57,113 nt of DNA from Candidatus Woesearchaeota archaeon (GTDB lineage Archaea > Nanobdellota > Nanobdellia > Woesearchaeales > CAXGTL01). The DNA lies in the NCBI GenBank assembly GCA_964012725.1, contig CAXGTL010000001.1:1-57113 (forward strand). The letters are read 5' to 3'. How positions within the stretch are numbered: the first letter of the stretch is position 1; each line of letters opens with the position of its first letter. Positions 13,271 to 51,449 of this stretch are shown here, piece by piece. A program made the translations under genes and the position numbers. Below the pieces are notes generated by a model, which worked only from the letters and a program-made list of their open reading frames with translations, was not told the DNA's origin and did no database searches.

Positions 13271-13273
13271 ATA

Positions 13274-13370
13274 CGCTGATGCCCGGATTTGAACCGGGAT
13301 ATCCGTAAGGAAACGAGATGACAGGAAATATTTTCCAGTCTCGCGCAGTACCAGGTTGTGCCACATCAGC
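13274..13370 (-). tRNA. tRNA-Ser(GGA) with one intron and long variable arm
   Basis: Acceptor GCUGAUG/CAUCAGC; anticodon stem CGAGA/UCUCG with loop CUGGAAA plus a ~13-nt intron; variable arm UUUCCUUACGGAUAU; T arm CCCGG-UUCAAAU-CCGGG. Confidence 0.85.
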
Positions 13371-13385
13371 AGTGTTCATTTTTTT

Positions 13386-42311: not shown

Positions 42312-43277
42312 ATGTTAACTAAAGAACGAATCAAAGACTTAGAAAAGCAAGGCTATAGAATAGTTGGCAATCATTCAGCAATCAAAGTTTGTCTTTGGAC
42401 AAAGAAATGTATTAGAGGCGAAGATGTTTGCTATAAAAACACATTCTATGGAATAAATACACACAAATGTGTTCAAATGACACCAGCATTACCTTTCTGC
42501 AACCAAAGATGTATGTGGTGCTGGAGAGATATTGCTTGGACATTACCAAAATGGAAAGGTAAAATAGACACACCAAAAGAAATAGTTGATGGTTGTGTAA
42601 AAGCTCACATTAAATATATACAAGGCTTTGGTGGAACAGAAAAAAGAGATGAAAATAATTATCAAGAAGCACAAAAACCTTTACACTTTGCATTATCACT
42701 TTCAGGAGAACCAACTTTATATCCACAATTACCTGAACTAATACAAGAAATACATAAACAAGGCATGACATCATTCTTAGTTACAAATGGAACTAACCCA
42801 GAGGTGGTACAAAAGTTGTTAGAAGGAGACAAAGAACAAAACCAAAGCACAGAACCAACACAACTCTATGTAACTCTTCCAGCGCCTGATAAAGAAACTT
42901 ATAACAAAGTATGTAACCCATCAGAAAAAGAAAACTGGGAAAAAATCTTACAAACACTTGAACTAGTACCAAAGTTCAAAAGAAATGTATTCAGACTAAC
43001 ACTAGCAAAAGATGTAAACATGATCAAACCAGAAGGTTATGCAGAACTAATCAATAAATATCAACCAATGTATGTTGAATGCAAAGGTTATGTCTGGGTT
43101 GGTTATTCAAGACAACGACTTGACATAGAAAACATGCCAAGGCATAATGAAATAATTGAATTCTCAAACAAATTAACAGAATTATGTCCAGGTTACAAGA
43201 TCATTGACCAAAAAGAAAACAGTAGGGTGACTTTGTTAGCAAAAGAAGATAGTGATGATAGGGTTATGAAGTTCTAA
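42312..43277 (+). CDS. taw1: tRNA 4-demethylwyosine synthase (Taw1/TYW1, radical SAM)
   Basis: 321 aa. CNQRCMWCWR cluster plus upstream Cys residues; SLSGEPTLYP. Confidence 0.8.
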   Translation: MLTKERIKDLEKQGYRIVGNHSAIKVCLWTKKCIRGEDVCYKNTFYGINTHKCVQMTPALPFCNQRCMWCWRDIAWTLPKWKGKIDTPKEIVDGCVKAHIKYIQGFGGTEKRDENNYQEAQKPLHFALSLSGEPTLYPQLPELIQEIHKQGMTSFLVTNGTNPEVVQKLLEGDKEQNQSTEPTQLYVTLPAPDKETYNKVCNPSEKENWEKILQTLELVPKFKRNVFRLTLAKDVNMIKPEGYAELINKYQPMYVECKGYVWVGYSRQRLDIENMPRHNEIIEFSNKLTELCPGYKIIDQKENSRVTLLAKEDSDDRVMKF

Positions 43278-43870
43278 ACCTCAATAATAACTCCATCTCC
43301 GCCAGTATTCAACACAGGAACACCATTAATAACATCCCTTCTTTTACCACAATCATGTATGTGTCCACAAACCACATATGTAGGTTTATTTTTATAAATA
43401 AACTCAAATATTGACTTACTTCCTACATGTTCATAATAAACAATATCAAGCTTTGTTCCATACGGAGGTGCATGTGTCAATAATATAGTTTTATACTTTT
43501 TATTACAATATTTTTTAAATTTATTTTTAGCAGATTTTTCAAACTTCCTATCACGCAAAGCAAAACCTCCACCACCCCATCCAAAAATAACACAATCTTT
43601 GCTTACTTGAAACACTGTATTATGTATAAACCTAGTATTGTTCAACATCTTTGCTAAACCTTTCATTTCTTCACTAGATTCATGATTACCATGTACAATC
43701 ATTACAGGTTTACCAAATGAATCTATTTGTTGCATAAAATAAAACAATTTATCAGAGAACATGCTTATATCTCCAGCACATATAATTAAATCTACTTTCT
43801 TTGCTTTCTTTTCTAATTTCTTCAAATCTTTTAAGCTTCCATGCATATCTACAAAGGTCAATATTTTCAT
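43274..43870 (-). CDS. metallophosphoesterase (calcineurin-like)
   Basis: 198 aa. DMHG, GDIS, GNHE, GHIH. AGGTGAT SD. Confidence 0.8.
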   Translation of the reverse strand: MKILTFVDMHGSLKDLKKLEKKAKKVDLIICAGDISMFSDKLFYFMQQIDSFGKPVMIVHGNHESSEEMKGLAKMLNNTRFIHNTVFQVSKDCVIFGWGGGGFALRDRKFEKSAKNKFKKYCNKKYKTILLTHAPPYGTKLDIVYYEHVGSKSIFEFIYKNKPTYVVCGHIHDCGKRRDVINGVPVLNTGGDGVIIEV

Positions 43871-49222: not shown

Positions 49223-50257
49223 ATGATACAAACTCTAAACAAAACACTATTATCAAAACAAGACATCTTCCAAGACATTCTAGGACAAGGCAATGTAAAG
49301 CTACAGATAAGATCAGCTTTATTATCCAACAGAAACATTATAGTAGTTGGAACACCTGGAATAGGTAAAACAACATTAGCAAAAAGCATTGCTAAGATTC
49401 TGCCACAGATTGAAGCAGTTGAAGGATGCGGATTTCATTGTGAAATCAAAAACCCAATATGTCCAGAATGTAAATCAAAGAAACATAAAAAAAAGACAAA
49501 GATTTCTGGAGAAAAACGATTTATCAGGATCCAAGGTTCACCAGACTTAACAGTTGAAGACCTTTTAGGTGATATTGATCCAATCAAAGCAATGAAATAC
49601 GGACCTTTATCTATTGAAGCATTTACACCAGGCAAAATATTCAAAGCAAATAATGGAGTTTTATTTTTTGATGAAATTAACAGATGTCCAGAAAAATTAC
49701 AAAATGCACTTTTACAAGTTTTGCAAGAAAGAAAAGCAACAATTGGAAGTTATGATGTTGATATACCAGCTAATTTCTTATTCATTGCAACCATGAACCC
49801 AGAAGACAGTTCAACAGAAAGATTAAGTGATGTATTACTTGACAGGTTTGATGTAATTTACATGTCATTCCCAGAATCAATAGAAATAGAAAAAGAAATA
49901 ATTAAAAAAACATGCACAAAGTTAGTTAAAGTAACTGACACACTTCTTCATTTCATGGCATATTTTGTAAGATTGTTAAGACAATCTGATAAATTAGAAA
50001 AAAAGCCAAGTGTTAGAGCATTACAAGGTTTATATGAAAGATCCCAAGCAAATGCATTACTAAATAATAAAAATCATGCAACTATGCAAGATCTTAAAGA
50101 TGTTTTAATAAGTGTATTAGCACACAGGATTAAACTTAAACCAAGTGTTAAATATCTTATGAGTCCTGAACAATTCTTAGAAAAAGAATTCAAAGAATTT
50201 CTTAAAACAAATGTAGGAAAACAAATTCAAACATCTGCTGAAGGAGACGTCCCCTAA
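49223..50257 (+). CDS. AAA+ ATPase, ChlI/MoxR-like, with Cys4 insertion
   Basis: 344 aa. Walker A GTPGIGKTT, Walker B VLFFDEINR, ATMNPED, and a CGFHC..CPEC insert. Ends GAC GTC CCC TAA. Confidence 0.8.
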   Translation: MIQTLNKTLLSKQDIFQDILGQGNVKLQIRSALLSNRNIIVVGTPGIGKTTLAKSIAKILPQIEAVEGCGFHCEIKNPICPECKSKKHKKKTKISGEKRFIRIQGSPDLTVEDLLGDIDPIKAMKYGPLSIEAFTPGKIFKANNGVLFFDEINRCPEKLQNALLQVLQERKATIGSYDVDIPANFLFIATMNPEDSSTERLSDVLLDRFDVIYMSFPESIEIEKEIIKKTCTKLVKVTDTLLHFMAYFVRLLRQSDKLEKKPSVRALQGLYERSQANALLNNKNHATMQDLKDVLISVLAHRIKLKPSVKYLMSPEQFLEKEFKEFLKTNVGKQIQTSAEGDVP

Positions 50258-50339
50258 TTTAGATGTAAAGATTGAAAAAAAAGAAGAAGCTGAAGAATTA
50301 TCAGGACAGTTAGAATCACAAAAAGATGAAGATAAACTA

Positions 50340-51449
50340 ATGCATTCTGTTTTAGAAAGTGATGAAGAAACAATTGAAGAAGGAAAAGTAATAAAAGATG
50401 CAATTAACCAAGGCATGGGATCGTTCACACCTGACATGATGTTTGAAAACCTTGTAAAAGATTATAGAAATGCAGAAAATATTTATGGAAAATCCATTAT
50501 AAGATATTTAACAGGCTATGATGCTGATTATGTTAAAAGAAATGTAAAAATTCCTGAGTTTCAGAAAGAAATCAAGAAAAATATTGGAGAAGCAATAAAA
50601 AAATTAAAAGAAAAAGATTTAATTGATAAACAATTTGCAATCACAGACAAAGGTTTTTACCTTGCATCTTTAATTCTATACACAGAAGAACTTGACAATA
50701 TTGTACCCAAGGGAATACTTGGTGAATATGAACATAAGAAAACATCACACTATGGTCTTCCAAAAGATACAAAAATATTCAAAAAAGGTGACAGGTATCA
50801 CGATATTGCTGTTAAAAAATCAGTAAAAGTTGCAATCAGAAGAGGACATTCTAAACTAGAAATAGATGATTTAAGAGCGCATGAAAGACATTCCAAAGGA
50901 AAAACTGTAATTATTTATGCAATGGATGCATCTGGTTCAATGAAAGGCAAAAAATTGGAAGCATCAAAAAAAGCAGGAATTGCACTTGCATTTAAAGCAA
51001 TCAATAAAAAAGATAAAATTGGAATGATTGTTTTTAAAAATAAAGTTGTGTCATTAGTTGAACCAACACAAGATTTTGGACTTCTATTAAAAGAAATTAC
51101 TCCAATAAAAGCATCTGGTGAAACAGATTTTGCATCTACAATAAGCAAAGCAATTGAATTATTTCCTTCAGAAAGAATAACAAAACATCTTATCATACTA
51201 AGTGACGCATTAGCAACATATGGTGCTGATCCTGAAAATGAAACTTTATCAGCGATTTCATTAGCAAAAGAAAATGGAATAACAGTTTCACTAATAGGAA
51301 TCAATCTTGATACCAAAGGTGAAGAGTTAAGTAGAAAGATAGTTGAGATCAGTGAAGGAAGGTTCTGGAGAGTAAGTAATCTTGATGAATTGGATAAGAT
51401 TGTGCTTGAGGATTATAATGAAATTCGTGAATTTGGTACAAGTTCATGA
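50340..51449 (+). CDS. von Willebrand factor A (VWA) domain protein, ChlD-like C-terminal half
   Basis: 369 aa. MIDAS motif IIYAMDASGSMKG. No SD. Its frame is already open from 50217 (41 stop-free codons, no canonical start), which covers the whole gap to the AAA+ gene. Confidence 0.75.
   Translation: MHSVLESDEETIEEGKVIKDAINQGMGSFTPDMMFENLVKDYRNAENIYGKSIIRYLTGYDADYVKRNVKIPEFQKEIKKNIGEAIKKLKEKDLIDKQFAITDKGFYLASLILYTEELDNIVPKGILGEYEHKKTSHYGLPKDTKIFKKGDRYHDIAVKKSVKVAIRRGHSKLEIDDLRAHERHSKGKTVIIYAMDASGSMKGKKLEASKKAGIALAFKAINKKDKIGMIVFKNKVVSLVEPTQDFGLLLKEITPIKASGETDFASTISKAIELFPSERITKHLIILSDALATYGADPENETLSAISLAKENGITVSLIGINLDTKGEELSRKIVEISEGRFWRVSNLDELDKIVLEDYNEIREFGTSS

Follow-up and report, generated by a model that had tools for sequence, protein, structure and literature searches.

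Candidate programmed +1 frameshifting between AAA+ and VWA modules of a ChlI/ChlD-like gene in Woesearchaeota

The AAA+/VWA locus and its products

This study concerns the junction of two open reading frames (ORFs) on a contig of “Candidatus Woesearchaeota archaeon” (assembly GCA_964012725.1, contig CAXGTL010000001.1); the whole stretch of 57,113 nucleotides (nt) analyzed is termed the window. The window is archaeal, has a G+C content of ~30%, and carries genes including Nre, aEF-2, and anaerobic ribonucleotide reductase. One ORF encodes a ChlI/MoxR-type AAA+ ATPase, and the other, called as a VWA protein from ATG 50340, lies in the +1 frame relative to it. The original prediction held that +1 recoding at the end of the AAA+ ORF fuses the two, and the relatives of the locus argue for this: programmed +1 ribosomal frameshifting, yielding a short product resembling ChlI and a long one resembling ChlD, is judged probable from sequence comparison. 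The features of the locus are as follows.

49223..50257, + strand: AAA+ ORF (zero frame), encoding the short product, a ChlI/MoxR-type ATPase of 344 amino acids (aa); from the ORF list and translation; stop TAA at 50255-50257
49349-49372, + strand: Walker A motif GTPGIGKT, in the AAA+ ORF
49427-49471, + strand: CxxHC...CPxC insert, in the AAA+ ORF
49658-49684, + strand: Walker B motif VLFFDEINR, in the AAA+ ORF
49835-49852, + strand: arginine-finger motif LLDRFD, in the AAA+ ORF
50241..50248, + strand: Shine-Dalgarno (SD)-like element AAGGAGAC, within the coding sequence; its AGGAG can pair with the 16S rRNA 3' end
50249..50251, + strand: spacer codon GTC, which separates the SD-like hexamer from the shift codon and would occupy the E site with CCC in the P site
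50252..50258, + strand: proposed shift site CCC_TAA_T, with CCC to CCU re-pairing and AAT as the next codon
50217..50339, + strand: open +1-frame stretch of 41 codons lacking ATG, GTG, and TTG; the preceding stop is TAG 50214
50256-50339, + strand: acidic linker NLDVKIEKKEEAEELSGQLESQKDEDKL by translation, the last 28 codons of the open +1-frame stretch
50256..51449, + strand: +1-frame region encoding the C-terminal portion of the putative long product (linker, helical middle domain, and VWA domain), 397 aa plus stop
50925-50939, + strand: metal ion-dependent adhesion site (MIDAS) motif DASGS, in the VWA domain
51114-51128, + strand: MIDAS T, within SGETD, in the VWA domain
51195-51209, + strand: MIDAS D, within ILSDA, in the VWA domain
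Trans-frame junction peptide predicted for the window: QIQTSAEGDVPNLDVK

The 3' end of the AAA+ ORF was confirmed to read GAA GGA GAC GTC CCC TAA, with AAGGAG at 50241-50246, 5 nt upstream of CCC, and the hexamer GGAGAC (50243-50248) occupies the place of GGTGAT in relatives. The description of the +1 frame also held: it is open from 50217 and contains neither a start codon nor an SD sequence before ATG 50340. An A8 run at 50275-50282 in the linker (+1 frame GAA AAA AAA GAA) could be a slippage-prone spot; it cannot restore the frame, because it lies downstream of the zero-frame stops.

That the gap between the called ORFs encodes an acidic linker, as originally proposed, is borne out by homologues. 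A search with both frames joined by a +1 shift at CCC_TAA (741 aa) retrieved ~30 single-ORF proteins of 683 to 828 aa covering 97 to 99% of the joined sequence, including P0001 (742 aa, 54% identity) and P0002 (from a Woesearchaeota metagenome-assembled genome). A second set of homologues consisted of “VWA-only” proteins of 407 to 413 aa together with “AAA-only” proteins. The N termini of the VWA-only proteins are unrelated for ~20 residues and then enter the block AEELSGKL...EDKLMHSVLE, and the block AEELSGxL...EDKLMHSV is common to the window upstream of ATG 50340, the VWA-only relatives, and the fused orthologues. The linker is conserved with all relatives from AEELSG onward and, with the relatives L005 and L006, from the first codon after the stop (window, NLDVKIEKKEEAEELSG; L005, DVDIKVQKKEQAEELSG; L006, DKQVKIQKTEDIEELSG). 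Sharing of this block upstream of ATG 50340 argues that the linker is translated and that ATG 50340 is an internal methionine, not a start.

The AlphaFold2 model of the fused orthologue P0001 has a mean predicted local distance difference test score of 84.9 and is disordered only at residues 340 to 367, 502 to 521, and a short loop at 562 to 565. The window junction (residue 344) maps to the disordered segment 340 to 367. By this model, the frame change sits in an interdomain linker, so that small and medium products would both be possible. At the homologous position, the gene of the fused P0002 (2530-2570 in locus L166) reads GAA GGG GAT TTT AAA AAA AAA GAT (E G D F K K K D); it retains “EGD” plus an SD-like GGGGAT, followed by an A9 run, and may be a trace of interconversion between fused and frameshifted states.

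The ATPase matches the Pfam families AAA_3, AAA_5, Mg_chelatase, and AAA_lid_2, and its Walker A, Walker B, arginine-finger, and sensor motifs are intact. Its best PDB sequence matches are ChlI/BchI (E of about 1e-15), and its fold matches are to the MoxR class (NorQ and CbbQ) and BchI/ChlI. The C-terminal part matches VWA_2, VWA, and VWA_3; in it, a helical domain precedes a VWA domain that has a complete MIDAS and a fold like that of the NorD VWA domain and BatB. The best NCBIfam models, “putative cobaltochelatase” and BchD-ChlD, fall far below their cutoffs (101 and 68 bits versus 779 for TIGR02442; 72 and 41 bits versus 500 for TIGR02031), and neither CobN nor ChlH was found among the window ORFs of ≥450 aa. 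A true chelatase subunit was ruled out on these two grounds, and the gene is best described, from its sequence, as encoding a distant ChlI/ChlD-like AAA+-VWA protein. The ChlD/BchD-type order suggested at first was therefore right as to the succession of AAA+ module, linker, and VWA domain with MIDAS but holds only as a distant relationship, with the large chelatase subunit absent nearby. A known defense system was also ruled out, since PADLOC gave zero matches for the VWA part and only generic AAA+ matches for the ATPase.

Between Walker A and Walker B lies a Cys/His-rich insert, CGFHCEIKNPICPEC (49427-49471), followed by a lysine-rich stretch. It is conserved in the fused orthologues (consensus GCPFHCDP..PVCP.C) and looks like a small zinc-binding knuckle; no such insert is known to us from ChlI/BchI. 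In some relatives (P0039, P0042, P0043, P0045, P0048, and P0050-P0052), an intein (Pfam LAGLIDADG_3 and Intein_splicing) is found inside the AAA+ ORF, which is then 755 to 802 aa long, and these proteins end in ...GDYR, ...GDLL, or ...GDFP, i.e., with the frameshift-site ending kept. The window copy of the AAA+ ORF has no intein.

Apart from a frequent metallophosphoesterase, the neighbors in other loci are unrelated. Among 108 loci in which enough downstream sequence is available, 74 have the metallophosphoesterase gene (Pfam Metallophos; ~200 aa) immediately after the AAA+/VWA gene and in the same orientation (e.g., 3729-4349 in L166 and 3435-4040 in L168). The window has a homologue (38% identity) on the opposite strand, 5.3 kb upstream (43274-43870, − strand), with a perfect SD sequence, AGGTGATC, before it. 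The metallophosphoesterase may be a functional partner. The sole tRNA gene in the 57 kb (13273-13371, − strand, 99 nt; 44 bits for the Rfam tRNA model) is given no name and a four-base “anticodon,” gaaa, by ARAGORN and is probably an intron-containing archaeal tRNA. RNA runs listed for the locus share 0 words with the window locus.

Conservation of the frame relation and the junction signal

In each of the first three contigs with VWA-only proteins, the AAA+ ORF overlaps the called VWA start and the VWA frame is +1. Relatives were then retrieved from 80 GTDB species representatives and 80 metagenome contigs (VWA identity, 53 to 84%), and roughly 700 further relatives were detected beyond these loci. 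The VWA frame is +1 relative to the AAA+ frame in 160 of 161 analyzable Woesearchaeota-type loci, with no in-frame fusion, and these loci represent 135 distinct junction sequences, to which the counts below refer. In a rough neighbor-joining tree, the fused proteins fall outside a single +1 clade. Within this clade, the last sense codon must, by parsimony, have changed 26 or more times and the stop codon 17 or more times, compared with just 2 changes of frame state. The comparison of orthologous loci envisaged in the original prediction thus gave a consistent picture: the +1 relation is kept, several orthologues lack a start codon or carry a +1-frame stop just before the junction, and the outgroups have single fused ORFs of 700 to 740 aa. 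Together with a shift-prone codon and a hexamer at fixed spacing, this supports +1 recoding as the means by which the AAA+ and VWA parts are joined.

The sole relative without the +1 arrangement, L044 (3440-3500 of the locus; CAZJZJ010000003.1), sits inside the +1 clade on the tree. Its AAA+ ORF ends in ATT AAA AAA AAA AGA CTA TAA, with an A10 run, and its VWA frame is −1 (+2). It represents either a switch to chelatase-type poly-A −1 or transcriptional slippage or a fused gene with a homopolymer sequencing error. L005, L006, L009, and ~30 other GTDB records are titled “uncultured Methanosarcinales archaeon” (binchicken coassemblies), and their nearest relatives are labeled Woesearchaeota/Nanoarchaeota; the “Methanosarcinales” names on these records look like placeholders or errors.

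The junctions follow the consensus GGTGAT-TNN-CNN-TRR-C. At positions −12 to −6 relative to the stop, the consensus bases occur in the numbers G113, G132, T121, G135, A109, T122, and T101 (of 135); C is found at −3 in 129 junctions and at +3, directly after the stop, in 121, where the window has T. The spacing between hexamer and shift codon is invariant at exactly one codon, and the last sense codon is CGG, CTT, CCC, CCG, GCG, GGG, or CTC in every junction. The combinations of last sense codon, stop, and following base are distributed as follows.

CGG_TAG_C: 54 of 135 distinct junctions
CTT_TGA_C: 35 of 135
CCC_TAG (C or T after the stop): 15 of 135
CCC_TGA (C, T, or G after the stop): 7 of 135
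CTT_TAG_C: 5 of 135
CCG_TAG_C: 4 of 135
GCG_TAG_C: 3 of 135
CCC_TAA: 3 of 135, the window among them
CGG_TGA, CCG_TGA, GGG_TAA, GGG_TAG, CGG_TAA, and CTC_TGA: few in total, of 135

These seven codons make up 5.9% of codons in the same genes, versus 100% of that position. CGG accounts for only 3.9% of Arg codons (1.8 per 1,000) and CCC for 7.9% of Pro codons (2.0 per 1,000), and GGT, the rarest Gly codon (11.5% of Gly codons), is nevertheless dominant at −12 to −10. The residues encoded by the hexamer vary (GD, 78; GG, 22; SD, 14; GE, 10; RD, 4; SG, 4), while GTGAT/GTGGT persists. Because rare codons dominate and the encoded residues vary, selection at the junction acts on nucleotides rather than amino acids. 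Decoding in the +1 frame would begin with AGC at 75 junctions and with GAC at 43. Among the 1.1 Mb of window and loci, all 105 of the 105 cassette-like sites with long flanking ORFs were this junction, and none was found elsewhere.

GGUGAU is complementary to the AUCACC of the canonical 16S rRNA 3' tail. At least six contiguous pairs with the tail are possible in 114 of the 135 junctions, compared with 0.1% of control windows from the same genes; the window junction allows five. The 16S rRNA 3' end was deduced from SD motifs upstream of genes: in the window, GGAGG, AGGTG, and AGGTGATC occur upstream of start codons, with 5-fold enrichment at −15 to −9, and the lineage is therefore taken to use that anti-SD sequence. 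No downstream stimulatory RNA structure was found (mean z score, −0.3 for +3 to +62 and 0.06 across the site). The upstream stretch from −70 to −13 (~50185-50242 in the window) is predicted to fold slightly more stably than its shuffled counterparts (mean z score, −1.09, with 21% of the 135 loci below −2); this may be an effect of coding-sequence composition, as mononucleotide shuffles exaggerate such z values.

The window site departs from the family consensus in having GGAGAC for GGTGAT, TAA for TAG/TGA, and T for C after the stop. Its nearest relatives (83 to 84% identity) read at this site GGGGAT GTC CCC TGA C (L005) and GGTGAT GTT CCC TGA C (L006). Compared with these, the window site is best placed as a derived, atypical member of the family, and its shift efficiency may be lower than those in L005 and L006. 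The prfB-type logic of the original prediction is supported by the family cassette of SD-like element, one codon, shift codon, stop, and C.

Proposed mechanism and rival explanations

We propose the following course of events. Ribosomes would translate the ChlI/MoxR-like AAA+ module in the zero frame until CCC 50252-50254 occupies the P site and TAA the A site. Most would terminate at TAA and release the 344-aa ATPase; in a minority, tRNA-Pro would move by one base, from CCC to CCU, after which AAT would be read and 397 more codons translated, giving a long product of 741 aa (AAA+ module, acidic linker, helical domain, and VWA/MIDAS domain). Two stimuli may contribute. A stop codon, especially one followed by C, would be decoded slowly, and a purine-rich sequence placed one codon before the shift codon (AAGGAGAC in the window, mostly GGTGAT elsewhere in the family) could pair with the 16S rRNA 3' tail during elongation, as in prfB. 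The two products would arise in a fixed ratio and presumably form a mixed AAA+ ring whose VWA/MIDAS arm binds a client.

The shift codons suggest two ways of changing frame. Re-pairing one base forward could take place from CCC to CCU, CUU to UUU, and GGG to GGU. With CGG, GCG, and CCG no re-pairing is possible, and the incoming tRNA would bind out of frame, as in yeast antizyme and Ty3. AGC and GAC, the usual first +1 codons, are full Watson-Crick matches for tRNA-Ser(GCU) and tRNA-Asp(GUC), and a C after the stop may both weaken termination and favor the incoming tRNA. tRNAs with G36-m1G37, which read C-initial codons (CUN, CCN, and CGG), are reportedly prone to +1 shifts, a property attributed to work of Björk et al. 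in 1989; we speculate that most of the P-site codons used here, being C initial, are read by such tRNAs. It is from the comparison of junctions that we infer actual shifting by the ribosome, its efficiency, the action of SD:anti-SD pairing in the archaeal ribosome, and the roles of the two products.

Several points weigh against this proposal. CGG, the commonest shift codon, cannot re-pair in the +1 frame, and a Ty3-like nonslippage mechanism must be assumed for it. We know of no demonstration that SD:anti-SD pairing stimulates frameshifting on archaeal ribosomes, and the 16S rRNA 3' end of these organisms was derived from upstream SD motifs. The support for every family member is sequence comparison. 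The window itself deviates from the consensus (GGAGAC, with a 5-nt spacing of the GGAG core, TAA, and T after the stop), so that its efficiency may be low. Finally, a +1-frame GTG lies within GGTGAT in 116 of the 135 junctions and an ATG one codon later in 4, and separate initiation or reinitiation of the VWA protein is hence possible at most loci.

This last point leads to the strongest rival, under which there are two genes and the VWA protein starts independently, or by termination-reinitiation, at a +1-frame start codon that precedes the AAA+ stop by 11 nt (GUG) or 8 nt (AUG), with GGTGAT kept as a start codon. The three most conserved bases of the hexamer are that GTG (at −11); three of the remaining junctions have ATG or TTG at −11, in addition to the four with ATG at −8. 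Gene callers and NCBI annotate a separate “VWA domain-containing protein,” and short gene overlaps with coupled translation are common in archaea. However, seven distinct loci (the window, L037, L047, L065, L067, L150, and L156) contain no start codon (ATG, GTG, or TTG) in the +1 box, and their VWA ORFs are intact over ~390 codons. In L037 and L130 (A GTG GTT TAG|CGT AGC) and in L156 (GTG GTG TAG|GGT AGT), a stop in the +1 frame intervenes between the GTG and the VWA coding region; these loci keep the GTG motif although the frame change is confined to 2 nt, at the last sense codon and the stop. As L130 is identical to L037 at the junction, they amount to two sequence-distinct loci with such a 2-nt box, or three with L130. 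Judging from these sequences, the P site must hold the last sense codon, and the A site the stop, when the frame changes. Two genes would also leave unexplained the restriction to seven codons, the C at −3 and +3, the conservation of −12, −8, −7, and −6, and the invariant distance to the stop; near-exclusive use of GTG over ATG as a start would be unusual, no SD sequence lies upstream of that GTG, and sister lineages encode one polypeptide. We consider this rival unlikely and, on the sequences, reject an independent VWA start as the general explanation; it is possible for loci with GTG at −11, and additional internal initiation at GUG is possible in some lineages.

Explanations that do without both frameshifting and a second start fare worse. 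Transcriptional slippage, in which RNA polymerase adds or drops a base and produces a subpopulation of in-frame mRNA, has precedents in some recoded genes and at poly-A tracts of chelatase-family genes, and the window offers a C4 run at the site and the A8 run in the linker. The latter lies 3' of the zero-frame stops, though, and the commonest sites, TAC CGG TAG C and TTA CTT TGA C, have no homopolymer of useful length; a strictly conserved direction is, moreover, typical of ribosomal frameshifting (Antonov 2013, PMC3711429). We regard slippage as highly improbable. The alternative raised in the original prediction, a sequencing or assembly error or a recent inactivating 1-nt indel that splits a fused gene into a pseudogene, might draw on the existence of fused orthologues, the atypical window site, and the frame change of L044 at an error-prone A10 homopolymer. 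It was ruled out, and we give it almost no credence: contigs assembled from three independent marine metagenome runs match the window exactly over 50100-50323, with zero indels, the longest homopolymer at the junction is C4, both ORFs are intact, and the same +1 relation recurs in 135 distinct sequences, down to 53% protein identity and amid many substitutions around the conserved signal. Programmed +1 frameshifting by the ribosome is thus the reading that we favor.

Significance and comparison with known systems

A 2021 review lists a −1 event in fucA1 as the only experimentally shown programmed frameshift in archaea and includes no established +1 case in a cellular archaeal gene (PMC8211752); +1 shifting in archaea has been suggested only for one haloarchaeal virus (PMC8211752, PMC5009743). 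A literature search for frameshifting in combination with Woesearchaeota, DPANN, or VWA returned nothing relevant. Recoding of a chlD-like gene by a prfB-type +1 cassette in Archaea looks new, in a comparison that covered Antonov et al. 2013 and Kuznetsov et al. 2022. We are inclined to see in the family the first deeply conserved +1 programmed frameshift of an archaeal cellular gene, present in at least 130 distinct Woesearchaeota-type lineages, and in its CGG, GCG, and CCG sites a sign that nonslippage shifting in the style of Ty3 and antizyme also exists in Archaea.

If this is true, archaeal ribosomes and aRF1 support +1 shifting that depends on a stop codon, pairing of the mRNA with the 16S tail is effective in elongating archaeal ribosomes as well, and shift-prone peptidyl-tRNAs (Leu-CUU, Pro-CCC/CCG, Arg-CGG, Ala-GCG, and Gly-GGG) are common to domains of life. 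The ~26 natural swaps of the shift codon would provide a comparative data set for studies of mechanism. Hundreds of database entries would split one gene into an “AAA family ATPase” and a “VWA domain-containing protein,” and the called VWA N termini would be artefacts. The principle of two chelatase-like subunits from one gene would be extended to a lineage without tetrapyrrole chelatase partners, which points to a broader need for a fixed ratio of AAA+ to AAA+-VWA subunits.

The closest mechanistic counterpart is bacterial prfB, whose consensus is an SD sequence followed by CTT_TGA_C (PMC3711429). Both have an internal SD-like element, a one-codon spacer, a C-initial shift-prone codon, an in-frame stop, and then C; neither needs a downstream RNA structure, and in both the direction of the shift is conserved among orthologues. 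Compared with the prfB site (SD-like AGGGGG, 3-nt spacer, CUU_UGA_C), 35 distinct family members carry a literal CTT TGA C. The differences are nevertheless considerable. The hosts are Archaea, which use aRF1 and have no RF2, and the gene is an AAA+/VWA gene rather than a release factor gene, so that the autoregulation by release factor 2 (RF2) does not apply. The family element is mostly GGUGAU, which would pair further into the 16S tail than the AGGGGG of prfB; many shift codons and all three stop codons are used; and the zero-frame product is a full functional domain, in contrast to the short abortive peptide of prfB.

With regard to the gene itself, the nearest precedent is chlD, in which programmed frameshifting is known, including in Methanocaldococcus and Methanococcus, mostly as −1 shifts at A_AAA_AAR/poly-A and with some +1 shifts predicted (PMC3711429, PMC9227772, PMC5009743). 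The architecture is shared: one gene has a ChlI-like AAA+ part, a frame change in the linker, and then a VWA part, is annotated as two genes, and has fused homologues. So is the proposed purpose of obtaining small and medium subunits from one mRNA; archaeal cases exist, and L044 carries a chelatase-type A10 site with a −1 relation. However, the chlD shifts are mostly −1 at A-rich runs with downstream structures, whereas a +1 shift is proposed here, at a stop codon preceded by an SD-like element, and the present proteins score below the TIGR02442 and TIGR02031 cutoffs, with CobN and ChlH absent from the window.

Established +1 sites in other systems comprise CUU_UGA_C in prfB, CCC_UGA in pheL and Listeria phage tsh, and GCG_UGA_C and CCG_UGA_C in yeast antizymes (PMC3711429, PMC5009743), and all shift codons observed in the family except CGG, GGG, and CTC are among those established elsewhere. 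The family sites GCG_TAG_C, CCG_TAG_C, and CCG_TGA_C have the same P-site codons as yeast antizyme (GCG_UGA_C; CCG_UGA_C in K. waltii) and Ty3 (GCG_AGU_U), where the peptidyl-tRNA cannot re-pair in the +1 frame, as with CGG in the family. Antizyme and Ty3 differ in being eukaryotic, in needing missing cognate tRNAs (and, for antizyme, polyamines), and in lacking an SD-like element. The CCC_UGA sites of Escherichia coli pheL and Listeria phage tsh resemble the window and 25 distinct relatives in placing CCC, from which tRNA-Pro can re-pair on CCU, before a stop; those sites are bacterial or phage, however, shifting in pheL is thought to be incidental, and the window uses TAA_T.

Other systems are similar in outcome or in protein architecture rather than in the signal. 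As with dnaX, whose tau and gamma products arise in a set ratio by frameshifting, two products would be made from one gene, and as with Saccharolobus solfataricus fucA1, two ORFs of an archaeal cellular gene would be expressed as one protein; both dnaX and fucA1 use −1 shifts at heptanucleotide slippery sites, and fucA1 frameshifting is confined to a few strains, whereas the present site is conserved across a large clade. The folds of both halves match those of ChlI-ChlD, NorQ-NorD, and CbbQ-CbbO, and the MIDAS is present as in these pairs, but their partners are encoded by separate genes or by a plain fusion, in contrast to the single frameshifted gene proposed for Woesearchaeota.

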